Assembly (NCBI GenBank): GCA_021204085.1
Contig: JAJPZY010000135.1
Coordinates: forward strand, 4,851-68,850
DNA length: 64,000 nucleotides
From: Clostridiales bacterium
GTDB taxonomy: Bacteria; Bacillota; Clostridia; Lachnospirales; Lachnospiraceae
Direction of reading: 5' to 3'
In this document: piece by piece, positions 9,125 to 64,000 of the stretch
Layout of the letters: every line of letters starts with the position of its first letter
How positions within the stretch are numbered: the stretch's first letter is position 1
Position numbers and translations under genes: made by a program
The notes under the pieces: model-generated
What the model was told of the DNA's origin: nothing
What the model saw: only the letters and a program-made list of their open reading frames with translations
Database searches by the model: none

Positions 9125-9168
9125 ATGCGCAGTTTTATCGGAAAATGAAAGCTGTAAAGGAAATTTTA

Positions 9169-10443: not shown

Positions 10444-10454
10444 ATGTTCGGGTA

Positions 10455-10496
10455 GGATGCAGAAGAGGGAGATATATATCTCCCTCTTCTGCATCC
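10455..10496. terminator. Perfect 42-bp palindrome between convergent iscS and pyrI; probable bidirectional terminator
   Basis: ggatgcagaagagggagatat|atatctccctcttctgcatcc. Confidence 0.7.
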
Positions 10497-10512
10497 GTCC
10501 AACAAATTAAAT

Positions 10513-10941
10513 TTAGTTCTTCTTATACTTCGTTTCGCAGTATTTACACCGGTAGATCTCTTTCTCCGGATCCGTCAGATAGAATATCTGATCCAGCTCC
10601 TGCTCAATCGAAGAAATGCACCGCGGGTTCTTGCAACGGATGATATTCTTGATCTTCAGCGGCAGCTGCAGATCCTTCTTTTCCACAATTTTCTCATCTT
10701 TGATAATATTGACTGTGATATTGTGATCGATAAACCCGACAAAGTCGATATCGATCAGCGCCGGATCACACTCGATTTTCAAAATATCTTTTTTGCCCAT
10801 CTTGTTGCTGCGGGCGTTCATGATCATGGCAACCTGGCAGTCCAGATCTGCCAGTTTTAAGTAATCGTAGATGGCGAGGCTGGTGCCGGCTTTGATATGG
10901 TCCAGAACATAACCCTCTTTAATTGCGCCTACATTTAACAT
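10513..10941 (-). CDS. pyrI: Aspartate carbamoyltransferase regulatory chain
   Basis: GYVLDHI, KKDILKIE and zinc motif CKNPRC...CKYC; adjacent to pyrB. Confidence 0.93.
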   Translation of the reverse strand: MLNVGAIKEGYVLDHIKAGTSLAIYDYLKLADLDCQVAMIMNARSNKMGKKDILKIECDPALIDIDFVGFIDHNITVNIIKDEKIVEKKDLQLPLKIKNIIRCKNPRCISSIEQELDQIFYLTDPEKEIYRCKYCETKYKKN

Positions 10942-10942
10942 C

Positions 10943-11860
10943 TTATACCTCCACTTCCAGCAATGTGAGGATCAGCGCCATACGTACATAAACGCCGTAC
11001 CTTGCCTGCTTAAAATAAACGGCTCTCGGGTCATCGTCCACCTCAACGGAAATCTCATTGACACGGGGAAGGGGATGCAGTACCAGCATATCCTTCGGAG
11101 CCAGTTCCATTTTTTCTTTGTTCAGGATGTAGAAATCCTTCATGCGGATATAATCTTCTTCATTGAAGAAGCGCTCGCGCTGTACGCGGGTCATGTAAAG
11201 AATGTCGAGTTCAGGGAGCGCGTCCTCCAGGCGGACAACCTCTTTAAACGGAATGTTTCCCCGTACCAGGACCTCATCATGGAGGTTGCTGGGAATCCGC
11301 AGTTCTTCCGGGGAAATCAGATCAAACTTGATGCCCGGATACCGAATCAGAGCGTGAATCAGGGAGTGGACGGTACGTCCGAACTTCAGGTCGCCGCACA
11401 GACCGATGGTCAGGTGGTCCAGACGGCCTTTTAAGCTGTAGATAGTCAGTAAATCTGTCAGCGTCTGAGTGGGGTGCTGATGCCCGCCGTCTCCGGCATT
11501 GATAACCGGGATGGTGGCTTTTTCCGATGCTACGAGCGGAGCGCCCTCCTTGGGATGACGCATTGCGCAGATGTCTGCATATTCGGAGATTACGCGAATT
11601 GTGTCGGAAACGCTCTCACCCTTTGAAGCGGAAGAATTTGCTGCGTCTGAAAAACCGAGCACCTGGCCGCCGAGATGAAGCATGGCGGATTCAAAGCTTA
11701 ATCGCGTGCGGGTGCTGGGCTCATAAAAGCAGGTGGCCAGAATTTTCCCGTCACAGGCATGCGCATATTTTTCCGGATGTTTTTCGATGTCGTTGGCCAG
11801 CCGAAGAAGCTCGTCCAGCTCTTCCACCGAAAAATCAAGCGGGCTGATCAGATGTCTCAT
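10943..11860 (-). CDS. pyrB: Aspartate carbamoyltransferase catalytic chain
   Basis: [20 protein letters not shown] and HPLPRVNEI. Confidence 0.97.
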
Positions 11861-12150
11861 AAATACCCTCCTTGAATTGTAATTTCCATGTTTTTGTCTT
11901 ATCCATAATATCGTAACGATGTTAAAAATACAATAGCAATTTTTTTAAATATTTTCCCCGGAACGGGAGCATAATCGTTTCTGATAGTTTATCATATGAA
12001 ACGGGCATTTTCGACCGTGATGTTTGCGTTTGAAATCTTTCTTCTTTTTGTATCTTGTATTCGTTTTTTGGTACAGGTATGATAAGAAATAATAATAGAA
12101 TTAAGGGCAATTTCGATTTTCAGATATATGTATGAAGGAGGAAGTTAGTT

Positions 12151-15100
12151 ATGATCATTCCGAAGTATTATGAGGACATTCACACATTGAATGTGAATTC
12201 CGAGCCGATCCGCGCGTATTACATTCCGACGTCTCCTGCGCAGGAGCAGACCTGGAAGAGCCGCCGGCAGACGGATCGGTTTTTCCTGTTGAACGGAGAC
12301 TGGAAGTTTCTGTATTTTGACAGTATTTATGACTGTCTGGAGGTGTTTTATGAGGAGGGGTACCGCACGGATGAGTTTGATTCAATCCCTGTTCCGTCCA
12401 ACTGGCAGGATCATGCATACGGGCTTCATCAGTATACGAACACTCGTTATCCGTTCCCGTTTGATCCGCCCTATGTGCCTCATGAAAATCCCTGCGGCGC
12501 ATATGTCCGGAATTTTACTTATCACAAAGCGGAGGGGACCGCTACCTATCACCTGAATTTTGAGGGCGTGGATTCCTGCTATTACGTTTGGGTGAACGGA
12601 GAGTTTATCGGATACCATCAGGTATCCCATTCGACCGGTGAATTTGATATTACTGAGCAGCTGCGCGAGGGGGAGAACACGCTCGCCGTCCTTGTGCTGC
12701 AGTGGTGTGACGGAAGCTACCTGGAGGATCAGGATAAGTTCCGCAGCTCCGGTATTTTCCGTGACGTTTATATCCTGGCCAGACCGAAGAACTATGTGAG
12801 TGATTATTTCACGACGACGGTTTTGAAGGATGATTATAAAAATGCGGATGTAAAGATTGCCCTCACATTTGCGGGGGAGGAGATTCCGGTTTCCTATCGT
12901 TTGATGACTCCCTGCGGCTGCACGGTTGCGGAGGGTACTTCGGCCGGCGCTGAGATTTCCTTTTCCGTGTCTGATGTAACTCTGTGGAATGCAGAGGCAC
13001 CGTATCTGTATACGCTGTTTCTCGCGACGGAGGATGAGGTGATCCGGGATCGGATAGGTTTCCGTGAGATTAAGATTGTTGACAGTGTTGTCTATCTGAA
13101 TGGGAAGAAAGTTCGTTTCCGCGGTACGAACCGTCACGACAGCGATCCGTATGTAGGCTCTGCTGTGACGCTTGAAAGTATCCGGTACGATATGTCGCTG
13201 ATGAAACAGCACAATTTTAACGCGATCCGTTCCAGTCATTATCCGAACATGCCGGAGTTTTATGAGCTCTGTGATGAGTATGGTTTTTATGTCATCGATG
13301 AGACTGACCTGGAGGTTCACGGTGTTGTTGACCTTTACAATGTGAATATTTACCGGGAGAAGGGAGAGCACCCGTTCCCGCCGTTTATCTGCGACAATCC
13401 GGAGTGGAAAGAAGCAATCTTAGACCGTGTGCAGAAGTGTGTGCTCCGTGATAAGAACCGTCCCTCTGTCCTTGTATGGTCGATGGGAAATGAGTCCGGT
13501 TACGGCTGTACTTTTGAAAATGCACTGGCATGGACGAAGAGCTATGACAAGACCAGACTGACGCATTATGAGGGTTCACTGCATCGTCCGCGCAACCCGA
13601 TCGGCGGAAAAAATGATTATTCCAATATTGACTTAAGAAGCCGGATGTATGCCTCCATTCCTGAGATGCATGCATATCTGCAGAACAATCCGGATAAACC
13701 ATTTGTTCAGTGTGAGTACATCCACGCGATGGGGAACGGCCCCGGAGACATCGAAGACTATTATGAGCTGGAGGAGATGTATGATTCCTATGTCGGCGGC
13801 TTCGTATGGGAGTGGTGTGATCACGGCATTTACATGGGTAAGACCAACAGCCGCCATAAAAAGTTCTATTACGGCGGCGACTTCGGCGAGTATCCGCATG
13901 ACGGGAATTTCTGCATGGACGGACTGGTATATCCTGACCGCACGCTGTCGGTGGGCATTAAGGAGTATAAAAACGTACATCGTCCGGTGCGCGTAAAGCT
14001 TATCGATGCCGCGGCGGGAACATATATTTTACAGAACAATCTGGATTTTACAAATTTAAAAGATGCTCTTTATCTGACCTGGGCTGTCTGGTGCGACGGA
14101 GATAAGATTTCCGCCGGTGAGATTCGGGATACCGGGCTCCTGGATGTTGCGCCCAGATCAAAGAAGGAAGTGGTGCTTCCGATTGAAGTGCCGCAGATGG
14201 AGGGAAAATCATATGTGATGATCACCTCCCATAAGCTGACGGCGGATTGTTTCCGTGAGGAAGGATTTGAGCTCGGATTTGACCAGCTGTTCTTAAACGA
14301 TGCACCGACAAAGAAGCTGACGAATCTTCTGGCGACTGAGAGTACGGCTCAGAAAGCGGTGACCTACAGCCAGGATGAGCGTTATGTTTATATTGAAGGA
14401 GAGGATTTTTCTTATACTTTCAACCTGCTGACCGGCGTGATCGGCAGAATCGTATATAAGAACCACAGCTTTATGGATGAGCCGATGGAACTGAATATCT
14501 GGCGTGCGCCGACGGATAATGACCGTGTGGTGAAAAAGCTCTGGTATGAGGCGGGATATGACTGCATGCAGACCAGGACGTACAGCAATACTTTCGAGAC
14601 GCTGGCAGACGGCAGCCTGAAGATTACGACGGTTTCCGCGATGGCTCCGGTGTATCGTCAGAAGTTTTTGGATTTTGTTATCGACTGGGTGATTAAGCCG
14701 GACGGCACCATCAACGTTCATCTGGAAGTAGAGCGCGATGCTGTGATGCGTGGTACCTATGCGCCTTATTTCAACATGCCGGAGAAGCGGCTGGATATGC
14801 ACGGAATCGAGGATTGCTTTGAGGTCCACGAAGCATACCTTCCCCGTTTAGGTATCCGTATGCATCTGCCGAAAAATATGTGCAAAGTAGAATATTACGG
14901 ATACGGTCCGTATGAGAGTTATATCGACAAGCGGCGGGCCAGCTGGTTCGGAAAGTTTGACGCGCATGTAGCAGCCATGCATGAGGATTACATCCGCCCG
15001 CAGGAAAACGGCAGCCATTACGGCTGTGAGTACGTCACCGTGGCAGACCGCACCCACAGGCTTTCAGTTTATAACGAGACGCCGTTTTCCTTTAACCTGT

Positions 15101-15300
15101 CTCAGTACACGGCGGAGGAGCTGACAAAGAAAGCGCACAACTTTGAGTTGGAAAAGTCCGGACATACTATTTTCTGCATCGACTATCGTCAGAGCGGAAT
15201 CGGCTCCGGAAGCTGCGGCCCTCAGCTGGCAGATAAATATCGGCTGAACGACACGCATTACAGCTTCGGGTTCCATATCCGCCCGGAGGAGCTTGCGTAG
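12151..15300 (+). CDS. lacZ: GH2 beta-galactosidase (LacZ/EbgA type)
   Basis: GTNRHD, WSMGNESG (acid/base Glu), CEYIHAMGN (nucleophile Glu) and GGFVWEWCD; 1049 aa. Confidence 0.9.
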   Translation: MIIPKYYEDIHTLNVNSEPIRAYYIPTSPAQEQTWKSRRQTDRFFLLNGDWKFLYFDSIYDCLEVFYEEGYRTDEFDSIPVPSNWQDHAYGLHQYTNTRYPFPFDPPYVPHENPCGAYVRNFTYHKAEGTATYHLNFEGVDSCYYVWVNGEFIGYHQVSHSTGEFDITEQLREGENTLAVLVLQWCDGSYLEDQDKFRSSGIFRDVYILARPKNYVSDYFTTTVLKDDYKNADVKIALTFAGEEIPVSYRLMTPCGCTVAEGTSAGAEISFSVSDVTLWNAEAPYLYTLFLATEDEVIRDRIGFREIKIVDSVVYLNGKKVRFRGTNRHDSDPYVGSAVTLESIRYDMSLMKQHNFNAIRSSHYPNMPEFYELCDEYGFYVIDETDLEVHGVVDLYNVNIYREKGEHPFPPFICDNPEWKEAILDRVQKCVLRDKNRPSVLVWSMGNESGYGCTFENALAWTKSYDKTRLTHYEGSLHRPRNPIGGKNDYSNIDLRSRMYASIPEMHAYLQNNPDKPFVQCEYIHAMGNGPGDIEDYYELEEMYDSYVGGFVWEWCDHGIYMGKTNSRHKKFYYGGDFGEYPHDGNFCMDGLVYPDRTLSVGIKEYKNVHRPVRVKLIDAAAGTYILQNNLDFTNLKDALYLTWAVWCDGDKISAGEIRDTGLLDVAPRSKKEVVLPIEVPQMEGKSYVMITSHKLTADCFREEGFELGFDQLFLNDAPTKKLTNLLATESTAQKAVTYSQDERYVYIEGEDFSYTFNLLTGVIGRIVYKNHSFMDEPMELNIWRAPTDNDRVVKKLWYEAGYDCMQTRTYSNTFETLADGSLKITTVSAMAPVYRQKFLDFVIDWVIKPDGTINVHLEVERDAVMRGTYAPYFNMPEKRLDMHGIEDCFEVHEAYLPRLGIRMHLPKNMCKVEYYGYGPYESYIDKRRASWFGKFDAHVAAMHEDYIRPQENGSHYGCEYVTVADRTHRLSVYNETPFSFNLSQYTAEELTKKAHNFELEKSGHTIFCIDYRQSGIGSGSCGPQLADKYRLNDTHYSFGFHIRPEELA

Positions 15301-15305
15301 GAAGC

Positions 15306-15517
15306 TTTTTTGTATCATAGGAAAGACCTTGCTTTTGTAAATTGGTAAAGTGCGTGATTTCCTATGATATAAAAACACTCTGTGAGGATGCGCAGCAGCT
15401 GTGCACGCTTGTTCACTAAGCTCACGATGTTCGCTAAGTGAGCCAATGCGTCGCGGATAGGAAGTTTTTGCTGCGCAACCGCTCGCGCGCGAAGTGTCGC
15501 AGGGCGACACTTTATTT
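15306..15517 (+). repeat. Palindromic intergenic repeat family A, copy 1
   Basis: Core 15371-15512 is 141/142 identical to the reverse complement of the 36.3-36.5 kb copy. Hairpins: tatcataggaaa/tttcctatgata and aagtgtcgc-agg-gcgacactt. Confidence 0.93.
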
Positions 15518-15604
15518 AAAAACATTGAATGACGGATGAGGAAGCTGTCGGTATCATATTTTAAGGCAACCGGGGCAACGCTTCGACGAACTAATCGCTA
15601 ACTG

Positions 15605-15668
15605 CGACTACGGAACTGTCACGATTTTTCTGTGTAGACAGACATGGTATTGGCGTGACAGTTCCTAT
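15605..15668 (+). repeat. Variant REP-like hairpin unit related to family B
   Basis: gactac-GGAACTGTCACG...CGTGACAGTTCC-ta, a 12-bp stem (15612-15623/15654-15665) in the same gactacGGAA...TTCCta frame as family B. Confidence 0.6.
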
Positions 15669-15804
15669 AGACACTCAGAATAGTTTTCGCGTCTAAAGTC
15701 TTAGTATACGACTTTGCTAAGCTCAATGTTCGCCGATGGCTCCATTTCGCTAAGTGCCGCATGTATAACATGAAAGCAGCCAATCAGCGTTCGTCAGTGA
15801 CAGC

Positions 15805-15912
15805 TTTGCATAAGTTCGACTACGGAAATCAGAGATTTCCTACGTTGTATAAGTTCGATCACGCAAATTTGAAATTTGCTATCTCACTTATGTCTCACTT
15901 ATCCGTTTCTTG
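15805..15912 (+). repeat. REP-like repeat family B, copy 1
   Basis: 15815-15905 is identical over 91 bp to the reverse complement of 18550-18640. It holds two tandem units, each TAAGTTCGAYYACG plus a hairpin. Confidence 0.93.
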
Positions 15913-16090
15913 GGCTTTCATGGTAACCGCTGGATTTTGTCTCAGCTAAAAGCGCCCCTATAAAGTTGCCTGAAAATAGGATACCGGCAACTTCCCATCC
16001 TGTGCCGATGGTTATGATAAACAATAAGAATAGTGCTTTGTTAAATCAATGGTTTCTTTTGTTTGAAAAAATACGTTTGGAAAATTTAAG

Positions 16091-16120
16091 TTGACAGGTT
16101 ACGTGAATACACATTATACT
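16091..16120 (+). promoter_or_regulatory. sigmaA-type promoter upstream of the hydF/nif-like/hyp cluster
   Basis: TTGACA-18 bp-TATACT. Confidence 0.7.
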
Positions 16121-16223
16121 TTGAGTAGTTAAGACATTTGCGAGAATCATTCATCTGACCATAAGGTACGGCCTGAAAGGAAAGACAAGTGATTGCAGCG
16201 ACAGGAAAGAGTTATTTATGCTG

Positions 16224-16257
16224 CCCTTGTACCCATTTTCAGGTACAAGGGTTTTTT
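16224..16257 (+). terminator. Intrinsic terminator inside the 5' leader of the hydF cluster (probable attenuator)
   Basis: cccttgtacc-cattttca-ggtacaaggg followed by TTTTTT, about 100 nt after the promoter and 300 nt before hydF. Confidence 0.8.
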
Positions 16258-16562
16258 GTAGTATATATACTTTGAATGTGGGTGGTGTGAGTGAGGAATA
16301 CAAACATGGAGACATTAAAAAGGCAGGGGATAGAATTGTTAATGTTGAGAATAATTTCTGGTTAATCGTCAGATTTTTATAAGCCGAGATTAACTAATGG
16401 ATGAACAACGAAAAAGGCAAAATGTGCCTCCCTGATCCTTGGGGATGACCTGAAAAATAAAGAAAAGTTTCCCAAAACGGGTTGCCGAAGGCAGGAACGA
16501 CCCGAGAAATGAAGAAAATTCGAAGAGAAGTAGTACAGCGCGGATAAAAGGAGGAATGAAAG

Positions 16563-17762
16563 ATGAGCCTGAACAGTACGCCTTCCGCGAACCGGATCCA
16601 CATCGGTTTTTTCGGAAGAAGAAATGCAGGAAAATCAAGTATCGTTAATGCAGTGACCGGGCAGGATCTGGCTGTGGTATCCGAGATCAGAGGGACGACC
16701 ACGGATCCGGTTTACAAGTCGATGGAACTCCTGCCCATGGGACCGGTGGTGATCATTGATACCCCGGGTTTTGACGATGAGGGAAGCCTCGGTGATCTAC
16801 GTGTAAAAAAGACCCGCCAGGTTTTAAATAAGACGGATGTAGCGGTGCTGATTGTTGACGCCTCGGAGGGAAAGCAGCCCTGCGATGAGGAATTGATCGC
16901 TTTGTTTCAGGAGAAGGAGATTCCCTATGTTGTGGCTTATAACAAGTCAGACCTTGTCACAGAGCAGCGAGAACTTTCTGAAAATGAGATCTCCGTTAGC
17001 GCGCTTTATAAGCAGGGAATTTATGAACTGAAGGAAATGATCGGGCGCTCTGTGGTGATGGAGGATGAACGGCTGAAAATTGTCGGAGATCTGATTCAGC
17101 CGGACGATTTTGTGGTACTGGTGGTGCCGATTGACTCGGCGGCTCCGAAAGGGCGGCTGATTCTTCCGCAGCAGCAGACCATCCGGGACGTCTTGGAGGC
17201 GGACGCCACGGCTCTTGTTGTGAAAGAGAACGGTCTGGCTGAGACTCTGAAAAACATGGGACAAAAGCCGGCGATGGTGATCACGGACAGTCAGGCTTTT
17301 GAGCAGGTGGCGACTACGGTGCCGGAGGATATTCTTCTGACCTCTTTCTCTATTCTGATGGCGAGATATAAAGGCTTTCTGGATGCGGCGGTAGAAGGCG
17401 TCCGGGCGCTGGACACACTGGAGGATGGCGATACGGTGCTGATTTCCGAGGGATGCACGCATCACAGGCAGTGCGACGATATCGGTACGGTGAAGCTTCC
17501 ACGTTGGATCAGGCAGTATACGGGCAAAGATATTCGCTTTGCGACGAGCTCCGGTACGGGGTTTCCGGATGATTTGTCCGGATATAAGATGGTGATTCAT
17601 TGCGGCGGGTGCATGCTCAATGAGCGGGAAGTAAAATACCGCATGAAATGTTCTCTGGATCAGGGCGTGCCGTTTACCAATTACGGGGTGACGATCGCGT
17701 ATCTGAAGGGAATATTGAAGCGGAGCGTGCAGGTGTTTCCTTATTTATATGAGAGATTATGA
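16563..17762 (+). CDS. hydF: [FeFe]-hydrogenase H-cluster maturation GTPase HydF
   Basis: [13 protein letters not shown] and NKSD GTPase motifs; GRLILPQ; Fe-S motif EGCTHH...HCGGCM; TNYG. Confidence 0.93.
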
Positions 17763-55208: not shown

Positions 55209-56477
55209 ATGACCAAGCCTACTTTTGTCACGAAGGAACAGATTGAAGAGATTGTAAAGACATACCCGACACCGTTTCATCTGTATGATGAGCGGGGCAT
55301 TCGTGAGAATGCGCGTGCAGTTCAGGAAGCCTTTTCGTGGAATCCGGGATTCCGTGAATATTTTGCAGTAAAGGTGACACCGAATCCGTTTTTACTTAAG
55401 ATTTTAAAAGAGTACGGATGCGGTACGGACTGCTCTTCCATGACGGAGCTCATGATGTCGGATGCGGTTGGTTTTTCGGGCGAGGAGATCATGTTTTCGT
55501 CAAATGATACGCCGCCGGAGGAGTTTATTTATGCCAATGAGATTGGTGCGACGATCAATCTGGATGATTTTACCCATATCGCATATCTGGAGAATCTGAT
55601 CGGAGAATTTCCGAAAACAATGAGCCTCCGTTATAATCCGGGCGGAGTTTATACATTGAGCAACGGTATTATGGACAACCCGGGCGATGCAAAGTACGGT
55701 TTTACGAAAGAGCAGATTATCGAAGGATATCGTATTCTGAAGGAGAAGGGTGTCGAGCGCTTCGGCCTTCACGCATTTCTGGTGAGCAACACGGTGACGA
55801 ATGATTACTATCCGACGCTTGCGAAAACACTTTTTGAACTTTGCGTGGAGATTCGGGAGAAGACAGGCGTGCAAATGGACTTTATTAATCTTTCCGGCGG
55901 CGTGGGGATCGCTTATCGCCCGGAGGAGACTCCGAATGACATCCGGGCCATCGGCGCAGGTGTGGAAAAGGTGTACAATGAGGTTCTGGTTCCTGCGGGA
56001 ATGGGCGATGTGGATATTTACACAGAGATGGGACGGTTTATGATGGGACCTTACGGCTGTGTGGTAACACAGGCTATTCATGAGAAACATACCTATAAGG
56101 AATATATCGGAGTGGACGCCTGTGCGGCAAATCTGATGCGTCCGGCAATCTACGGCGCTTACCATCATATTACTGTTGCGGGGAAGGAAGAAGCGCCCTG
56201 TGACCATAAGTATGACGTTGTTGGTTCTCTCTGCGAGAACTGTGACAAATTTGCCATTGACCGGATGCTGCCAAAGATTGATATGGGTGATTACCTGATT
56301 ATCCATGACTCCGGTGCGCACGGTTTCTCCATGGGGTATAATTATAACGGGCGGCTTCGTTCCGCGGAGCTTCTTTTGAAGGAGGACGGCAGCGTACAGC
56401 TGATCCGACGGGCGGAGACACCAAAAGATTACTTTGCGACCTTTGACTGCTTCGATATTATCCGGGAGCTGGTGTAA
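55209..56477 (+). CDS. lysA: Diaminopimelate decarboxylase
   Basis: YFAVK (PLP Lys), INLSGG, EMGR, GSLCE and MGYNYN. Confidence 0.9.
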   Translation: MTKPTFVTKEQIEEIVKTYPTPFHLYDERGIRENARAVQEAFSWNPGFREYFAVKVTPNPFLLKILKEYGCGTDCSSMTELMMSDAVGFSGEEIMFSSNDTPPEEFIYANEIGATINLDDFTHIAYLENLIGEFPKTMSLRYNPGGVYTLSNGIMDNPGDAKYGFTKEQIIEGYRILKEKGVERFGLHAFLVSNTVTNDYYPTLAKTLFELCVEIREKTGVQMDFINLSGGVGIAYRPEETPNDIRAIGAGVEKVYNEVLVPAGMGDVDIYTEMGRFMMGPYGCVVTQAIHEKHTYKEYIGVDACAANLMRPAIYGAYHHITVAGKEEAPCDHKYDVVGSLCENCDKFAIDRMLPKIDMGDYLIIHDSGAHGFSMGYNYNGRLRSAELLLKEDGSVQLIRRAETPKDYFATFDCFDIIRELV

Positions 56478-56492
56478 TATTGGAAATATTGT

Positions 56493-56638
56493 TGTAACTA
56501 TTCAGAACCAGGCTCGAAAATGCTGCACATTTCCTCGCTGTCGCGTTCTCGCCAGATAAATTTGTACTTAAAACAGCTTACGGATGCAAGCATCCGACAC
56601 TGTTTTTCGACAAATTTGCCTGGTTCTGAATAATTACA
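56493..56638. mobile_element. MITE-like element with 21-bp terminal inverted repeats and a 6-7-bp flanking direct repeat
   Basis: tgtaactattcagaaccaggc / gcctggttctgaataattaca (20/21 match); TATTGT at 56487-56492 and 56639-56644; nested internal hairpins. Confidence 0.7.
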
Positions 56639-56660
56639 TATTGTATAAAAACGTGAGCCA

Positions 56661-56706
56661 AGGAAGGCTGATTGCAAATTTTGTGTCAATCAGTCTTTCC
56701 TTTTTT
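56661..56706 (+). terminator. Intrinsic terminator of lysA
   Basis: aggaaggctgattg...caatcagtctttcct followed by a T run. Confidence 0.7.
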
Positions 56707-56792
56707 GTAAATTACTGATATGATACTACGGTGAAGCGTTCGTAACATGTGGCGCATGGTTTCGGGAGATTAAATATTTATAAGGAGACAGT

Positions 56793-58322
56793 ATGGCAGA
56801 GCTTGTACTGGAAATGAGGGGGATCACAAAGACATTTGGTTCGGTGGTCGCCAACAAAGATGTGAATCTGAAGTTGTACGCCGGCGAGATTCACGCATTA
56901 TTGGGAGAAAATGGTGCCGGTAAGAGTACGTTGATGAATGTGCTTACCGGCATTTACAAACCGGATGGGGGAGAGATTTATTATAAGGGGAAAAAAGCAG
57001 TGATTCGCTCGCCGCGCCAGTCGGTTGCCATGGGCATCGGTATGGTGCACCAGCATTTTCGCCTGATTCCCACGCTGACGGTGGCGGAGAATGTGGCGCT
57101 TTATTCAGAAGAGCGGAATTTTTTCTTACATACGGCGAAGATGGAAGAGGAGATTGCGGAGTGTTCCCGTCAGTTTCAGATGGAAGTTGACCCGCATGCA
57201 AAGGTCTGGCAGCTTTCCGTTGGAGAACAGCAGAGGGTGGAGATTGTTAAGCTTCTTTACAGGGGCGCGGAGGTCCTGATTCTGGATGAGCCATCCGCGG
57301 TGCTGACTCCTCAGGAAGCCGATAAAATGTTTGTCACGCTGCGGCGGATGGCGGAGCAGGGCAAGACGGTTATCGTGATTTCGCATAAAATGAACGAGGT
57401 AATGAAAAATGCGGACCGCATAACGGTGTTAAAAGGCGGAATGGTGGAGGACACCATGGAGGCAAAGGACGCCACTTTGGAGCGTCTGACCCATGCCGTG
57501 GTCGGCGACCGGGAATATGTCGAGCATGTGCACAGACAGCGGGAGCTTAGCAGCAGAAGCGTGCTCAGGCTGAATGATGTAACGGTGAAGAACGATAAAG
57601 GGCTTCCCGCGGTACAGGATGTAACGCTGGACATTCGGGAAGGTGAGATTTTCGGTATCGCGGGTGTTGCAGGCAACGGACAGAGAGAGCTGGCGGAACT
57701 GATCGCCGGACTGCGGCCGACAACAGGCGGAACTGTCTGTCTGGGGGACCGGGATGTCACAAAGGCATCCATACGGGAACGAATTCGGGCGGGCATTTCC
57801 TTCATCCCGGAGGACCGTCTTCACACCGGTCTGGTTCCGGGTATGAACTTAAAGGAAAATATTATACTGAAGGAATTTGACACGGAGAAATACAGCAAAA
57901 GGGGAATTATCCGTTCGAAAGCCGTGGAAAGCGCTGCAGATCGCTTTACTGACATATATGATATAAAACATGGCGGAAAGGAGCTGCCGGTCGGACTCAT
58001 GAGCGGCGGCAACCAGCAGAAGCTTCTGGTCGGACGTGAGGTAGACGGACGGCCGAAGCTGATCGTGGCCTCTTATCCGGTCCGCGGTCTTGATATCGGC
58101 GCAGCAGAGGCTATCCGCCAGATTCTCATGGAGGAGAGCCGGCAGGGGACAGCGGTTCTTCTGATTTCCGAGGAGCTGGATGAGATTTTCCGTATGTGCG
58201 ACCGTGTCGGCGTACTTTGCGGCGGCATTTTGATGGGAATTCGCTCCGTAGATGAAACGAATTACAATGAGATCGGGTTGATGATGTCCGGCGAAAGAGT
58301 GGAGGTGGTTTCTCATGCGTAA
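56793..58322 (+). CDS. ABC transporter ATP-binding protein (two-domain, CUT2/nucleoside type)
   Basis: GENGAGKST, LSVGEQQRVEI, ILDEP and SGGNQQK. Confidence 0.93.
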   Translation: MAELVLEMRGITKTFGSVVANKDVNLKLYAGEIHALLGENGAGKSTLMNVLTGIYKPDGGEIYYKGKKAVIRSPRQSVAMGIGMVHQHFRLIPTLTVAENVALYSEERNFFLHTAKMEEEIAECSRQFQMEVDPHAKVWQLSVGEQQRVEIVKLLYRGAEVLILDEPSAVLTPQEADKMFVTLRRMAEQGKTVIVISHKMNEVMKNADRITVLKGGMVEDTMEAKDATLERLTHAVVGDREYVEHVHRQRELSSRSVLRLNDVTVKNDKGLPAVQDVTLDIREGEIFGIAGVAGNGQRELAELIAGLRPTTGGTVCLGDRDVTKASIRERIRAGISFIPEDRLHTGLVPGMNLKENIILKEFDTEKYSKRGIIRSKAVESAADRFTDIYDIKHGGKELPVGLMSGGNQQKLLVGREVDGRPKLIVASYPVRGLDIGAAEAIRQILMEESRQGTAVLLISEELDEIFRMCDRVGVLCGGILMGIRSVDETNYNEIGLMMSGERVEVVSHA

Positions 58323-59439
58323 TTTGCGTGTACAGAAAAGAACCGATCTGACGCCGGTAAAGAGGCTGATCAATGTTGTGATTTTTGTGCTGCTTGCACT
58401 GGTGTTCTGTGCGTTTTTTGTGGCCTATAACGGAAACAATCCCCTTGAGGTCTATGCAAAAATGTTGAAGACGATTGTCTCCGTGAAAGGTCTGCAGAAA
58501 AGTATTGTCGCAGGGTTGCCGTTGATTTTTACAGGCCTGGCAGTGGCTTTCGGATATCGGATGAATCTGAACAATATTGGAGCGGACGGACAGTATGCAT
58601 TTGGCGCGATTTTCTGTATCTGGTTTGCGCTTTACGGACCGGATATGCCGGCAGTGCCGAAGATTATTCTCATGTTTGTTTTCGCGTGCGCGGGCGGAGC
58701 CTTTGTCGCGCTGCTGGCTGCGATTCCCAAAGCACTCTGGGATGTGAATGAGACGATTATGACAATGATGTTAAATTACGTGGCGCTGTATGTTTTAAAT
58801 TATCTGACCTACGGTCCATGGAAAGAATCCGGTCAGATGGTTGCGCAGACTGCGGAGATTTCCGAGCGGTATTATCTGCCGGATATCGGAAATACGGGGA
58901 TTAATTCGATTCTGCTGATTGCCATAGCGATTGCAGTTGTCCTGTATTTTTTCCATTCGAAAACGACAAAGGGTTTTGAGATGGAGGTAGTCCGCAAAAG
59001 CCCGGGAGCGGCAAGATATGCCGGTATTCATGTAAAGAAAAATATTATCCTGGTGCTTGCTGTAAGCGGTGCGATCGCCGGCCTGGCCGGCTTTGCCCAG
59101 GTGGGCGGCATCATCCACCGGGTGCAGGCGGATATGCCGAATGGTGCCGGTTACACCGGCATCGTTATCGCTTACCTGGCGGGATTAAATCCGTTGGTTG
59201 TGGTGATTGTCGGCATCCTTTTCGGTGCATTGCAGATCAGTGCTGTTGCCGTGCAGGTTTCCGGAGTTCCCTCTCAGATCGCGACGATGATTCAGGGCAG
59301 TATTATGCTGTTTGTGATCGCGGGAGACTTTTTTACCAGATATAAAATCGTTCGGACGAAACCGGATCAGGCCAATGGCTCGGACATCTCCCGGGGAAAT
59401 GAATCGGACATCACACAGAAGGGAGGCGCAGAGGTATGA
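58315..59439 (+). CDS. ABC transporter permease 1 (BMP/nucleoside type)
   Basis: NIGADGQ, NETIMTMMLNY, SGAIAGLAG and GYTGI. Confidence 0.9.
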   Translation: MRNLRVQKRTDLTPVKRLINVVIFVLLALVFCAFFVAYNGNNPLEVYAKMLKTIVSVKGLQKSIVAGLPLIFTGLAVAFGYRMNLNNIGADGQYAFGAIFCIWFALYGPDMPAVPKIILMFVFACAGGAFVALLAAIPKALWDVNETIMTMMLNYVALYVLNYLTYGPWKESGQMVAQTAEISERYYLPDIGNTGINSILLIAIAIAVVLYFFHSKTTKGFEMEVVRKSPGAARYAGIHVKKNIILVLAVSGAIAGLAGFAQVGGIIHRVQADMPNGAGYTGIVIAYLAGLNPLVVVIVGILFGALQISAVAVQVSGVPSQIATMIQGSIMLFVIAGDFFTRYKIVRTKPDQANGSDISRGNESDITQKGGAEV

Positions 59440-60368
59440 CGACAGCATTGCTGGTATCTATTATTTCGACGGCGATTGTATATGCGGTTTCCGTTCTTTA
59501 TGCCGCGGTCGGTGAGATTTTCTCCCAGCGGGCCGGTGTGATGAATCTGGGTCTCGAGGGAATTATGCTGATGGGTGCGGTTTCCGGTTATCTGGTGGCG
59601 GTACACCGACAGAACCTGGCGTTGTCCATGCTTGCCGTTATTGCGGTAGGTGCGATTCTCGGGCTGGTTTTTGCGTTTGTGACAGTAACGCTTCAGGCAG
59701 ATCAGACGGTTGCAGGCATGGCCATGCTTACCTTCGGCACGGGTTTAAGCGGTTTTATCGGAAAGGAAGTCAGCGGCGTCAACGCGAATTTAAAGTTTGA
59801 GTCTTTTGATCTTCCGCTTTTATCAAAAATCCCGGTGATCGGCCAGAGTTTTTTCCACCAGGATATTCTGGTGTATGCCATGTATATCATTTTGCCCCTG
59901 TCCATGATTTACATTTATAAGACGAGGCCGGGGATGATTCTCCGCTCTCTTGGCGAGAACCCCGCAACATTGGACAGCGTAGGGTACAATGTGTTCGCAC
60001 TGCGATATGCATATGTTGTATTCGGCTGTATTATGACGTCGGTTAGCGGCGCATGTGTTTCGCTCTCTTACACAAACTTCTGGAGTGACGGAATGACAAG
60101 CGGAAAGGGATGGATTGCCGTGGCGCTGGTGGTGTTCGCCTCATGGAACCCTCTTGTGGCAGTGTTCGGCGCATTGCTGTTCGGCGCAGTCAGTATTATC
60201 GGGGTGGATATTCAGATGTATTTTACCGCGATTCCGTCCCAGTTTTTCTCGGCGCTTCCTTATGTAGCGACGATTATTGCGCTGATTTTCACTACGGGAA
60301 ATTTCCGGAAAAAGAGGTCGGCGGCGCCTGCCGCGCTTTGTATTCCCTATGACCGGGAGGAGCGATAG
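59436..60368 (+). CDS. ABC transporter permease 2 (BMP/nucleoside type)
   Basis: RAGVMNLGLEG, GENP, GKGWIAVALV and LPY. Confidence 0.9.
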   Translation: MTTALLVSIISTAIVYAVSVLYAAVGEIFSQRAGVMNLGLEGIMLMGAVSGYLVAVHRQNLALSMLAVIAVGAILGLVFAFVTVTLQADQTVAGMAMLTFGTGLSGFIGKEVSGVNANLKFESFDLPLLSKIPVIGQSFFHQDILVYAMYIILPLSMIYIYKTRPGMILRSLGENPATLDSVGYNVFALRYAYVVFGCIMTSVSGACVSLSYTNFWSDGMTSGKGWIAVALVVFASWNPLVAVFGALLFGAVSIIGVDIQMYFTAIPSQFFSALPYVATIIALIFTTGNFRKKRSAAPAALCIPYDREER

Positions 60369-60580
60369 TGACGGGAACGGGTGTAACCCGGGAAGATGTG
60401 TTATATCAATGATGAAAGTAACAGAAGATACATATTTTGAATTGCTTTGCAGGAAACGCAGCTATGCATCAGTTTGATCTTTTGTTCCTTGTATCATATA
60501 AATAAGCTCACGAAATCTTTGCGCCGGATTCAGCAGGCACAGCGAATTGTGAGCCAACGAAAAAACAGGAGGAAACGACA

Positions 60581-61807
60581 ATGAAAAAGAAAGTACTCAG
60601 TGTGTTGCTCATCGGAGCAATGGCGGCAACCCTGATGGCGGGCTGCGGCAGCACGGCAAGTGACAGCAGTGATGCAGATGGTTCTGCAGCGGCGGAGACG
60701 AGCGAAACTGCGGACGACGCGGCAGACGCGGCGGAGGATTCTGATACGGTCAACCTGATCTCGCAGGATCTTCTGGGAAGCGACCCGGAGGATGGTGCAG
60801 ATCTTTCCGGTATGATGATCGGTGAGATCGAATCTTACGTAATCAATGACGGCGGCTGGTGCCAGGCGACGCATGAAGGTATTGTTGCGGCGATGGAAGA
60901 GCTGGGAATTCCGGAGGATAACCTGATCGTTCTGGAGGAGATTGATGATACGGATCAGGCAACGGTGCAGGCAGCAGCGGAGCAGCTGATTGAAGAGGGA
61001 TGTACACTGATCATCGGTGCTTCTACCGGTTATGCTTCTTTCCTGCCGGAGATTGCGGCTGAGAATCCGGATGTTACCTTTGCACAGTGGGGCAATAAAG
61101 TAGACGGGCTGATCGGTTATGAAATCCGAAGCTATGAGGGCATGTTCCTGGCGGGTTACGCCTGCGAGCTGCTGAGCCAGGATGAGAATACACAGCTTGG
61201 TTATTCTGCTTCTTATGATGAGTTTTCCGTCCGTACAGCGATCAATGCGTATGCGCTCGGCGCAAAGTATGCGAACGAGGAAGCAACTGTAAAAGTTGCC
61301 TGCGCGAATTCCTGGTATGATATCGACGTGGAGACTCAGTGTGCACAGTCACTGATTGACGCCGGCATTAAATATATGGGCATGGAGGCTTCCTCCCCGG
61401 CAATTCCTGAGACCTGCGAGGAAAACGGCGTATATGTGGTTGGTTATCACAATGATATGTCTTATCTGGCTGAGGATGCGGTTCTGGTTTCCTTTACCTG
61501 GAATTTCGCTCCGATCTTTAAACAGATTATGATTTCCGTAAATGACGGTACGGCAACCGCAAATGACTTCTATTACTGGGGCGGCGAGTGCTCGAAGCTG
61601 ACAGATTTTGCTTCCTTTGTACCGGAGGATGTTGTCACGGCAGTGGAAGAGCTGAGCGCACAGATTGAGAGCGGAGAGGTTCAGGTATACGGCGGCGAAC
61701 TCAAAGACAGAGACGGAAATGTTCTGGTGGAAGAGGGCGAAGTGATGTCTGATGACGATATCATCCTCCAGGAGTTCTTTGTAGAGAACGTAGACTGCGC
61801 ATGGTAA
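60581..61807 (+). CDS. BMP-family ABC substrate-binding lipoprotein
   Basis: Lipobox LMAGC (Cys22), acidic linker, NDGGW and INAYALGAK..N. Confidence 0.88.
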   Translation: MKKKVLSVLLIGAMAATLMAGCGSTASDSSDADGSAAAETSETADDAADAAEDSDTVNLISQDLLGSDPEDGADLSGMMIGEIESYVINDGGWCQATHEGIVAAMEELGIPEDNLIVLEEIDDTDQATVQAAAEQLIEEGCTLIIGASTGYASFLPEIAAENPDVTFAQWGNKVDGLIGYEIRSYEGMFLAGYACELLSQDENTQLGYSASYDEFSVRTAINAYALGAKYANEEATVKVACANSWYDIDVETQCAQSLIDAGIKYMGMEASSPAIPETCEENGVYVVGYHNDMSYLAEDAVLVSFTWNFAPIFKQIMISVNDGTATANDFYYWGGECSKLTDFASFVPEDVVTAVEELSAQIESGEVQVYGGELKDRDGNVLVEEGEVMSDDDIILQEFFVENVDCAW

Positions 61808-61904
61808 ATGTGTGTAATTACAGGGGTCGGACTTTAAATCATTCAAATGGTTATAAAGCACTGGCTTCGAGTAGTTACAAAAAAGAGTAAGAAGGAGCAG
61901 TGAC

Positions 61905-63281
61905 ATGGACGCAAAAAGATATCTGGATCTTGTCGAGAGGAGCAACACCGGAGAGAAAGTCGGCAAAAATGATTGGGATATGGATTATATCATTGATAAC
62001 GTCATGGAACTGGTGGACGATTACGATTTTTCCTGGGATAAGCAGGTGCTGATCCCTGAGGATGACAAGCTGCTGGATGATATGATGGAGGCGGCAAAGA
62101 AGCTTCTTTTAAATACCGGCATTTATAATATGTCTACCGGGCGGATTATTGCCTTTTCCGAAGACGAAATCGATGAAGGAATCCGGAATATGAAAACGGA
62201 GCTGGTCATGGGCGAGGGTAAGGATGCGTATACGCTGGCTGCCCGCGGTATCGAGGATCGCAGGCCGCCGGCTGTCTGGGCCGGTAATCCCGGCTGTCCG
62301 ACACCGGAGCGGCTGTATCTGCCGATTATTCAGAGTGTAGCGAAGGAACCTGTGGTCGACCTGCTTACCTGCGGCTCTCTTGTAGATGTGGACGGTTATC
62401 GTGTAAAAAGCGGTGATGTAACTGAGCTTCTGGCTGTTCGCAGAGAGATGAAGTATCTGCATCAGGCACTTGAGGAAGTCGGACGCCCCGGCATGGGGCT
62501 TCTGGCTGCGGAGAGTGCGGTCACAGAGATGGGCGATCTGGCTGCGGTCGGGCAGCAATGGCTTCGGCCCTGCGATTCACATCTGGTGGCGCTGTTTAAT
62601 GAACTGATCATAGATAACGGGAACCTGGTTCGAGCGGCCAGTTCACTGGACTATGGAATGAAAAACGCTTCTCTGGCCTGCACGATGGTCGGCGGTCTGG
62701 GCGGAGACGCGCCCGGAAGCTGTATAATTATGATTGCTTCCATTTTCGCCGCGAATCTGATTGCGCTGGCAGATTATCACCTCTGCCATCCCATTCATAT
62801 CAAAGATGTGGCGACTACGGCGCGGGGATGCCTCTGGCTTCAGTCTGTTCTTTGCCAGACTTTTGCGAAAAACGCGCCGGCAATCATAGTCTGTGATCTC
62901 TGGCCGTCCAGCGGCAGCCTTACCAAAGAGCTGCTCTATGAGGTGGCGGCTAATACGATTGTTGTGACTGTTTCCGGCGGACATCTGGAAGGACTGGGAT
63001 CTGCAAACGGAAATGCTCCGAATGGTACCGGGCTGGAGGTTCGTCTCATGGGAGAGGTTGGAAAGGCAGTCGCCCGACAGGGGATGACAAGGTCTGAAGC
63101 GAATGCCATTGTCTTACAGCTGGTCGAAAAGTATGAGCATATCTTTCAGATGGAAGACGGCAACAAAGGAGAGCCGTTCGATGTGTCTTATAATATGGAG
63201 ACCATTGAGCCTGTTCCGGAGTGGCAGCAGATGTACGATGAAGTCAAAGAAGAACTGACACAGATGGGTATTCGATTTTGA
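61905..63281 (+). CDS. Monomethylamine:corrinoid methyltransferase (MtmB)-family protein without pyrrolysine
   Basis: 458 aa; TGEKV..DWD, DRRPP, GRPGMG, LFNELIID, TGLEVRLMGEV and GEPFDVSYNMETIEP; CTG (Leu200) where MtmB has the amber/Pyl codon. Confidence 0.85.
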   Translation: MDAKRYLDLVERSNTGEKVGKNDWDMDYIIDNVMELVDDYDFSWDKQVLIPEDDKLLDDMMEAAKKLLLNTGIYNMSTGRIIAFSEDEIDEGIRNMKTELVMGEGKDAYTLAARGIEDRRPPAVWAGNPGCPTPERLYLPIIQSVAKEPVVDLLTCGSLVDVDGYRVKSGDVTELLAVRREMKYLHQALEEVGRPGMGLLAAESAVTEMGDLAAVGQQWLRPCDSHLVALFNELIIDNGNLVRAASSLDYGMKNASLACTMVGGLGGDAPGSCIIMIASIFAANLIALADYHLCHPIHIKDVATTARGCLWLQSVLCQTFAKNAPAIIVCDLWPSSGSLTKELLYEVAANTIVVTVSGGHLEGLGSANGNAPNGTGLEVRLMGEVGKAVARQGMTRSEANAIVLQLVEKYEHIFQMEDGNKGEPFDVSYNMETIEPVPEWQQMYDEVKEELTQMGIRF

Positions 63282-63292
63282 AGAAATGAAAT

Positions 63293-63339
63293 GCGGTTGG
63301 TGCTTAACGGTTAAACATCGATAAGTGCCGGCCGCTTTT
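63293..63339 (+). terminator. Intrinsic terminator closing the ABC-mtmB-like operon
   Basis: 14-bp stem gcggttggtgctta/taagtgccggccgc with four G-U pairs (pairs only on the + strand RNA), followed by TTTT. Confidence 0.65.
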
Positions 63340-63376
63340 GCTATAATCGTGAAAATTGTGAAAAAATAAACATATA

Positions 63377-63405
63377 TTGACTGATGATTCCTCGGTTGTT
63401 ACAAT
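63377..63405 (+). promoter_or_regulatory. sigmaA-type promoter of the last gene
   Basis: TTGACT-17 bp-TACAAT. Confidence 0.65.
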
Positions 63406-63428
63406 AACTGTATATCAATTTCGGAAGA

Positions 63429-63477
63429 GGCAAAGGCGCCATGAGAGACGAGAGTTTTTCATGGTGCCTTTCTTTTT
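63429..63477 (+). promoter_or_regulatory. Leader terminator overlapped by an ANTAR-like hairpin
   Basis: GGC-AAAGGC-GCC (3-bp stem, hexaloop with A1 and G4) overlaps the 5' arm of terminator aaaggcgccatga/tcatggtgccttt-cttttt. Confidence 0.6.
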
Positions 63478-63571
63478 AGCCTCTTGTAATGTAAAAATGA
63501 GATTTTGCATTTTTGATAGTAAATGCACCGGCAGAAATAAGGAAGTTCTATCAGGAAAGGAGACACAGAAC

Positions 63572-64000
63572 ATGAGCGCATTTGAACCGATTTTATGCGG
63601 ACACCCGGGAGTAGACGAGGTCCTGGACAGCATTCGTCTGGGCGACAACGTGGTCTGGCAGGTGACGACTCTGGAGGAGTTTAAATGTTTTGCTGACCCG
63701 TTTGTAAAACAGGCAATTGCGGATGGAAGAAATCTGATCTACATGCGGTTCGGTAATCATGAGCCGCTCCTTTCACCTCAGCCGGGCTTAAAGATTTATG
63801 AGTTTGATCCGAATGAGGGATTCGAGACGTTTACCGTGAATATTCGCAGCCGAATTACGGAGGAAGGATTTGACGCGTTTTATGTCTTTGACAGCCTGTC
63901 TTCGTTACAGTCTGTCTGGTATACCGACCTGATGATGGGAAACTTTTTCCGTCTGACCTGTCCGTACCTTTTTATTCTCGACACGGTGGCTTATTTTCCG
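63572..64000 (+). CDS. Clostridial PEP/pyruvate-binding-domain (PPDK-like) protein, N-terminal part; runs off the right edge
   Basis: AAGGAG RBS; MSAFEPILCGHPGVDEVLDSIRLGDNVVWQV...SVWYTDLMMGNFFRLTCPYLF, open to the window end. Confidence 0.7.
   Translation, partial: MSAFEPILCGHPGVDEVLDSIRLGDNVVWQVTTLEEFKCFADPFVKQAIADGRNLIYMRFGNHEPLLSPQPGLKIYEFDPNEGFETFTVNIRSRITEEGFDAFYVFDSLSSLQSVWYTDLMMGNFFRLTCPYLFILDTVAYFP

Follow-up and report, generated by a model that had tools for sequence, protein, structure and literature searches.

Five genes at positions 56793-63281 of the window, all on the + strand, encode an ATP-binding cassette (ABC) importer, its substrate-binding lipoprotein and a pyrrolysine-free protein of the MtmB family. 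The window is the whole stretch of 64,000 nucleotides analysed here, and its source is a gut or rumen Lachnospiraceae bacterium, the assembly of which comprises 2.93 Mb and is 94.7% complete. We suggest, with a probability of about 0.5, that this unit is involved in the uptake and demethylation of an N-methylated adenine-type base, with N6-methyladenine as the leading candidate, a corrinoid partner acting in trans and salvage of the adenine released. The genes are as follows:

56793..58322, + strand: ABC transporter ATPase with two fused ATP-binding domains (PF00005 twice, E 5e-50)
58315..59439, + strand: permease 1, BPD_transp_2 (PF02653, E 7e-35), with an 8-base overlap with the ATPase gene
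59436..60368, + strand: permease 2, BPD_transp_2 (PF02653, E 4e-28), with a 4-base overlap with the permease 1 gene
60581..61807, + strand: BMP/PnrA-family substrate-binding lipoprotein (PF02608, E 7e-34), with the lipobox LMAGC and an acidic linker
61905..63281, + strand: pyrrolysine-free MtmB-family protein of 458 amino acids (aa), the proposed methyl-purine:corrinoid methyltransferase (MT1) (PF05369, E 5e-94)

The initial annotation described these genes as a same-strand group of five bounded by terminators, and both the coordinates and the domain matches agree with it; hairpins with U-runs were found on either side (56660-56702, z -3.0, and 63293-63335, z -4.8). It had also noted that the operon contains no gene for a corrinoid protein, an activase or a methyl-tetrahydrofolate (methyl-THF) transferase, and no corrinoid protein, activase or pterin-type methyltransferase was found within the window. 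Intergenic gaps of 212 and 97 bases precede the binding-protein gene and mtmB, respectively; a closed, co-transcribed unit is plausible. The public sequencing runs, of unknown library type, yielded short contigs from related strains (90-99% identical) and were uninformative on co-transcription.

The product of the last gene matched PF05369 over profile positions 5-450 of 450, with no in-frame stop, and aligned with MtmB from Methanosarcina barkeri (1L2Q, E 3e-63) along residues 8-458, with 31.7% identity over 457 residues. The MtmB fold is clear from this full-length alignment, and the RPGMG motif ahead of the pyrrolysine site is retained. However, although the two proteins belong to the same family over their whole length, the UAG-encoded pyrrolysine of the M. 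barkeri enzyme (residue 202; structures 1L2Q/1NTH) is replaced with a leucine (L) residue in our protein, and with leucine, isoleucine (I) or tyrosine (Y) across its clade. Furthermore, our protein is bacterial and is encoded beside purine-base importers and adenine salvage genes, with no adjacent mtmC, rather than beside methanogenesis genes. Its sequence places it in the MtmB family, yet it lacks both the pyrrolysine and the mtmC that characterize MtmB proper. No NCBIfam model matched the 458-aa protein. A database search returned 945 matches, the best 120 of which were all at least 75% identical to the query, and the tight clade of the protein consists mainly of Lachnospiraceae; the relatives bear the NCBI label 'monomethylamine:corrinoid methyltransferase'. 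The pyrrolysine-free copy is rare: among 301 genus representatives of the Lachnospiraceae, 7 carry it. When 142 MtmB-family members were placed in a tree, the query clade grouped with sequences from Chloroflexota that share 55-57% identity with it (support 1.0), and the query also fell, together with the homologs from the loci L043, L037, L044 and L047, in a larger clade (support 0.998) with L, I or Y in the pyrrolysine column, apart from the M. barkeri branch.

The database name could nevertheless be right, in which case the protein would be a corrinoid methyltransferase for monomethylamine or, like MtqB, for tetramethylammonium or choline. The full-length Pfam match and the NCBI naming of relatives are consistent with this, as is the absence of pyrrolysine from MtqB itself. 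The MtqB/MtqC system of Methanococcoides methylutens Q3c is a tetramethylammonium/choline methyltransferase and includes the only pyrrolysine-free MtmB homolog characterised, the remaining pyrrolysine-free MtmBs being stated to have unknown function (PMC13044021). MtqB shows that such proteins can be active corrinoid MT1 enzymes on substrates other than methylamine, and its clade is marked by Met/Cys and aromatic residues conserved near the bound substrate (PMC13044021). However, it is a methanogen enzyme acting on quaternary amines, with an adjacent corrinoid protein gene, whereas our protein has a purine context and would rely on a corrinoid protein in trans; in addition, MtqB was placed near the pyrrolysine-type MtmBs (PMC13044021), unlike the query clade, with which it was compared by description only. 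The lack of a pyrrolysine codon and of an NCBIfam match, the 31.7% identity to MtmB, the separate, well-supported clade and the neighbouring genes, which include purine-type ones and no amine, choline or betaine transporters or enzymes at any of the 34 clade loci described below, make the database name very improbable. A canonical methylamine methyltransferase was rejected, as there is neither pyrrolysine nor any amine-related neighbour. A true pyrrolysine-type mtmB (721 bits, with one in-frame TAG) was identified in another Lachnospiraceae genome (G089:C7:34174-35526), where a gene for a RACo-type activase follows some 1.5 kb further on; this bacterial family thus contains MtmB of both kinds.

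The neighbourhood of the enzyme gene was compared at 34 clade loci from Firmicutes (66-95% identity), 31 of which were taken from the 34 that a scan of species genomes returned, the others being those of Lactonifactor, a Roseburia and the window. The ATPase-permease-permease-BMP genes adjoin the enzyme gene at 23 of these loci, and the synteny of mtmB lacking pyrrolysine with BMP transporters, the conservation of which was a check proposed with the initial annotation, is thus borne out. As the order ATPase-permease-permease-BMP-mtmB recurs in this way in many genera, it is far beyond chance. Eight other loci have instead a gene for a 520-aa polytopic membrane protein directly downstream of the enzyme gene; the two importer types are mutually exclusive, and one or the other is present at 31 loci. 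An adenine deaminase was identified at 10 of the 34 loci, in at least five arrangements (TIGR01178, 603 bits against a cut-off of 472.5), and an adenine phosphoribosyltransferase (APRT) gene lies ahead of the ABC genes at four, ending 11-12 bases before the ATPase gene in two of them. No guanine deaminase, xanthine-specific enzyme or B6 enzyme was linked at any of the 34 loci. Accidental adjacency was rejected, since the linkage has persisted through five or more arrangements of the genes and through a swap of one importer for the other.

Across the family, the importer was specific to this setting. Orthologs of the binding protein (at least 54% identity) were present in six of the 301 genus representatives, four of which also have the MtmB gene (Fisher p 1.5e-6), and the remaining three enzyme carriers have the 520-aa permease. 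In one genome with the BMP-ABC importer and no MtmB (L053, G275:C10, positions 8003-16256), the importer genes are strung together with those of an adenine deaminase that scores as canonical (622 bits) and of a divergent paralog (369 bits, below the cut-off of 472.5); the paralog may stand in hydrolytically for the MtmB step, for example by deaminating N6-methyladenine. At three loci (L018, L020 and L021), the gene for a NUDIX hydrolase (224 aa) is found between the binding-protein gene and mtmB, and this insertion hints at a link with modified nucleotides. In Lactonifactor longoviformis (L001, positions 9086-17072), the mtmB-permease pair lies amid iron genes (ferritin, a DtxR-type repressor, FeoA/FeoB and Fur), a setting that is probably coincidental.

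The sister and more distant MtmB homologs were found in neighbourhoods that contain the components missing from our operon. The locus L043 (57% identity) encodes a GntR regulator, RamA, a corrinoid protein, the MtmB homolog and an energy-coupling factor (ECF) importer, and L037 (55%) encodes a corrinoid protein, the MtmB homolog and a pterin-binding methyltransferase. At L044 (39%), a 529-aa permease, which is 53% identical to the 520-aa permease, is encoded with an adenine deaminase, a corrinoid protein, a URO-D protein, the MtmB homolog and a PocR/AraC regulator. The locus L047 (38%), from Candidatus Aphodomorpha, which is very common in gut samples, has a PucR-like regulator, an NCS1 cytosine/purine permease, a corrinoid protein, the MtmB homolog and DUF1638, with RamA and URO-D alongside. 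In all, an operon context of the corrinoid protein/activase/second methyltransferase (MT2) kind was found for the close homologs at L043, L037, L044, L046, L047 and L050. Outside the clade with 0.998 support, the MtmB homolog of L049 is translationally coupled to an amidohydrolase of the 5'-deoxyadenosine-deaminase type (535 bits against a cut-off of 522). The Anaerolineales locus L041 (31%, positions 168-21350), also outside this clade, contains three divergent MtmB paralogs, two corrinoid proteins and a URO-D protein. It also encodes a BMP-ABC importer, two amidohydrolases of the DadD/TRZ (5'-deoxyadenosine-deaminase) type and xanthine-dehydrogenase subunits in two sets, and as a whole it has the appearance of a complete pathway by which a multiply methylated purine would be degraded anaerobically. 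Around the MtmB family, corrinoid methyl-transfer machinery and adenine/purine-ring enzymes or importers recur together in these comparisons.

The initial annotation reasoned that the partners of the enzyme must lie elsewhere in the genome, and a genome search located a corrinoid protein, RamA and URO-D methyltransferases on the contig C146. Three B12-binding domains were identified in the assembly, belonging to MetH, to a probable radical-SAM protein and to a stand-alone corrinoid protein of 212 aa on C146 (PF02607 and PF02310). The last of these is encoded in the sole corrinoid methyltransferase cluster of the genome:

C146:22462-30596: two URO-D proteins, an AraC regulator, the corrinoid protein, DUF2284 and RamA (Fer2 and RACo domains)

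Kountz and Balskus described 'mlp' clusters, and the layout found here matches their type 1 (PMC10418091); the 353-aa URO-D protein of the cluster is 49% identical to the URO-D protein beside the Aphodomorpha MtmB operon. A methyl-THF transferase had also been expected elsewhere in the genome; the only pterin-binding module of the genome sits inside MetH and, since there is no dedicated pterin-type methyl-THF transferase outside MetH, the MT2 is likely to be of the URO-D type, as encoded on C146. RamA was present in 29 of 31 enzyme-bearing Firmicutes genomes versus 173 of 293 (59%) genomes of the family without the enzyme (p 4e-5, a figure inflated by the relatedness of the carriers). This genome has an adenine phosphoribosyltransferase, and no adenine deaminase homolog was found in it. 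The C146 cluster is followed by genes that resemble those of cobalamin biosynthesis.

The top solved relatives of the binding protein were the BMP protein of Brucella melitensis (3S99, E 5e-32), which was deposited with adenine modelled in its site, and AtzT of Pseudomonas sp. ADP (6PI5, E 5e-29), with affinities of 0.11 µM for guanine and 2.5 µM for adenine and no binding of GTP (PMC6834077). The nucleoside binders BmpA (E 9e-9) and BmpD (E 1e-5) scored far worse. As its closest solved relatives bind free bases, the protein is more likely to take a free base than a nucleoside. When the contacts of AtzT were mapped, the aromatic sandwich was found to persist (Tyr45 replaced with Trp, Trp194 kept) and Ser97 was kept, and Glu165, Asn169, Asn218 and Asn220 of AtzT corresponded to Ser, Ala, Glu and Ser. 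The resulting set, W/S/S/A/W/E/S, was invariant in 25 orthologs from many genera. Relative to AtzT, an acidic residue is thus shifted across the pocket, and the ligand is therefore probably flat and purine-like, and substituted unlike plain adenine or guanine.

This polar pocket, unlike those of the adenine- and guanine-binding structures, would also be consistent with another methylated heterocycle, such as 7-methylguanine, a methylxanthine, a methylated pterin or a vitamin-like compound, the nearby adenine genes then reflecting general purine salvage. The top NCBIfam models for the transporter are of the 'putative B6' kind, all below their cut-offs (for the ATPase, NF047930 scored 473 bits against a cut-off of 670, and no equivalog name is assigned); the xanthine-dehydrogenase subunits of the distant L041 fit oxidised purines, and the ECF importer of L043 has a different kind of S-component. 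However, the enzymes linked in the clade and its sisters all act on adenine or a 6-aminopurine (adenine deaminase, APRT and the 5'-deoxyadenosine-deaminase type), and within the clade none was specific for guanine, xanthine or B6. We therefore consider a different heterocycle unlikely.

The genes, their conservation, their neighbours and the partner genes in trans were observed directly, whereas we infer which substrate is used, that its methyl group is transferred and to what end, and that the C146 proteins take part. The proposed route would be as follows. The BMP lipoprotein would capture the N-methylated adenine outside the cell and the ABC transporter would import it. The MtmB homolog, as MT1, would then transfer the N-methyl group to the corrinoid protein in its Co(I) state, freeing adenine, while RamA, the ATP-dependent reductive activase encoded on C146, would keep the corrinoid protein reduced and a URO-D-family methyltransferase from the same cluster would hand the methyl group to a further acceptor. 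Because this organism has no adenine deaminase, the adenine would probably be converted to AMP by APRT; in relatives with an adenine deaminase, it would be converted to hypoxanthine. N6-methyladenine is formally a monomethylamine bearing a purinyl substituent and, like methylated adenines in general, it is plentiful in RNA and in the DNA of bacteria. It is the leading candidate substrate for these reasons and because the linked enzymes act on the 6-aminopurine ring, and degraded DNA and RNA are the leading candidate for its source. Ring-N-methylated adenines and N6,N6-dimethyladenine would be alternatives. The general idea of the initial annotation, the demethylation of an imported methylated purine via a corrinoid, thus gains from the two importers, from the adenine deaminase and APRT genes of the clade and from the corrinoid protein, RamA and MT2 of the sister loci. 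Its examples of substrates need refinement: the neighbours within the clade point to the adenine ring rather than to methylxanthines, and the closest solved binders take free bases rather than nucleosides.

The order of the reactions might also be reversed, with a deaminase acting first on imported N6-methyladenine or N6-methyladenosine to free methylamine, and the MtmB homolog then demethylating this monomethylamine, its ancestral substrate. Bh0637 and Bsu06560, from the adenine-deaminase family, turn N6-methyladenine into hypoxanthine and methylamine (PMC8643624), amidohydrolase-type deaminases occur beside MtmB homologs in several clades, and MtqB has trace activity on monomethylamine (PMC13044021). 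However, this genome has no adenine-deaminase homolog, and none was found near 24 of the 34 loci. Where a deaminase is linked, it scores as a canonical adenine deaminase, and the AdeC enzyme of Escherichia coli is inactive on N6-methyladenine (PMC13296781). Furthermore, throughout the clade, Leu, Ile or Tyr occupies the position of pyrrolysine, the residue by which true MtmB activates methylamine, and three very divergent MtmB paralogs, as in L041, would be pointless for a single substrate. A reversed order is therefore improbable.

Several observations weigh against the demethylation of an imported methyladenine. A corrinoid protein gene was found within 10 kb at one of the 34 clade loci, and none is adjacent to the enzyme gene at the other 33. 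Two enzyme-bearing metagenome-assembled genomes (MAGs) lack both the stand-alone corrinoid protein and RamA; corrinoid protein and RamA genes being neighbours, both absences could result from one missing contig. The C146 cluster resembles the widespread 'mlp' clusters, which are present in roughly 60% of the family members that have no MtmB, and its role may lie in a different pathway (PMC10418091). A second enzyme-less genome carries the orthologous importer alone, which could simply import adenine. The pocket residues that correspond to Glu165, Asn169, Asn218 and Asn220 of AtzT differ from those of both purine-binding structures. The 520-aa permease is labelled 'xanthine/uracil permease, AGZA family' by NCBI and UniRef names only; Pfam (E up to 10), NCBIfam and PDB profile searches gave no match, and alignment with the genome's own NCS2 permease (PF00860) by hhalign gave a probability of 2.5%. 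No match to Rfam, and thus no purine or cobalamin riboswitch, was obtained for positions 56000-64000 of the window (E up to 1), and no riboswitch was matched at gathering scores at seven related loci. Finally, methylation at N6, N1, N3 or N7 would be indistinguishable by sequence.

The absence of an adjacent corrinoid protein, the two MAGs and the frequency of RamA, which is common anyway (60% of the family genomes), would fit an enzyme that is not a corrinoid methyltransferase, with some other purine or adenine chemistry or none, or an adjacency to the importer that is meaningless. This explanation has to contend with the strong conservation of the protein (75-95% identity across genera), with the position of its nearest outgroups (55-57% identity) in complete operons for a corrinoid protein, RamA and an MT2, and with the linkage to an importer at 31 of the 34 loci in several arrangements, which is hard to explain without a function. 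We consider it a poor prospect, and retain the uptake and corrinoid-dependent demethylation of an N-methylated adenine as the preferred interpretation.

The comparison can tentatively be extended beyond the window. A large branch of the pyrrolysine-free MtmB family might consist of oxygen-independent, cobalamin-dependent N-demethylases of methylated adenine, acting on N6-methyladenine and similar bases or nucleosides from DNA and RNA, of which the operon in the window would be the uptake-coupled, salvage-oriented form; we would not put the odds of this quite at even. The logic proposed would be that of the three-component systems with an MT1, a corrinoid protein, an MT2 and RamA, such as MtgB/MtgC/MtqA and the 'mlp' systems (PMC10418091; PMC12478193), and the sister clades encode the full set. 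However, our MT1 gene is detached from those of its partners and attached to an uptake operon, and a methylated nucleobase would be an unreported class of substrate. MtgC is a documented case of a corrinoid protein shared by different systems (PMC12478193). The deaminases Bh0637, Bsu06560 and E. coli Add and the oxygen-dependent AlkB-type demethylases have the same presumed aim, that of returning methylated adenine to the purine pool. However, the deaminases for N6-methyladenine and N6-methyladenosine release methylamine and yield hypoxanthine or inosine, and the AlkB-type enzymes need oxygen, whereas the proposed route would keep the adenine and pass the methyl group to cobalamin anaerobically. 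To our knowledge, only hydrolytic (deaminase) or oxygen-dependent recycling routes have been described for methylated adenines. Our literature search retrieved no paper that connects homologs of MtmB with purines, with adenine or with BMP transporters, nor any enzyme that N-demethylates purines anaerobically; no enzyme is named in a 2026 preprint on the demethylation of caffeine under anaerobic conditions.

If this interpretation is correct, most of the pyrrolysine-free MtmB family would acquire a testable function, and corrinoid methyltransferase chemistry would be widened from amines, ethers and thiols to nucleobases. Nucleic-acid turnover would be tied to one-carbon metabolism in gut and rumen bacteria, and anaerobes of the gut, rumen and sediments would gain a new route for recycling epigenetically modified bases and harvesting their methyl groups. 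An annotation error would also be mended, as genes named 'monomethylamine methyltransferase' may be miscounted as methylamine or trimethylamine functions in metagenome surveys. The idea is directly testable, since there are cultured carriers, namely Lactonifactor longoviformis, Robinsoniella peoriensis and Bilifractor porci.

The following RNA and promoter-like elements were identified around and within the operon:

56607-56634, + strand: promoter-like TCGACA-16-AATAAT from the promoter scan, upstream of the 56660 hairpin
56660..56708, + strand: hairpin 56660-56702 followed by U6 (folding free energy, dG, -18.7 kcal/mol; z -3.0)
60474..60502, + strand: putative internal promoter TTGATC-17-TATAAA, read by eye in the 212-base gap and absent from the promoter-scan list
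61813..61879, + strand: hairpin without a U-run between the binding-protein gene and mtmB (dG -24.4 kcal/mol; z -3.9; 0 of 200 shuffles as stable)
63293..63339, + strand: terminator-like hairpin 63293-63335 followed by UUUU, 3' of mtmB (dG -26 kcal/mol; z -4.8)

The first hairpin either terminates transcription of the lysA-like gene upstream or acts on the operon as an attenuator in its leader. No obvious common motif was found when the regions upstream of the ATPase gene were compared at 17 loci. The hairpin at 61813-61879 may be an element for mRNA processing or stability that sets separate levels of the binding protein and the enzyme. Beyond the operon, at positions 63377-63471 of the window, a promoter-like TTGACT-17-TACAAT precedes a very stable hairpin that ends in a U-run (dG -37.2 kcal/mol; z -7.0). 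This element, which has no Rfam match, lies about 100 bases ahead of the next open reading frame (start at 63573) and might act as a leader attenuator or represent a small RNA.

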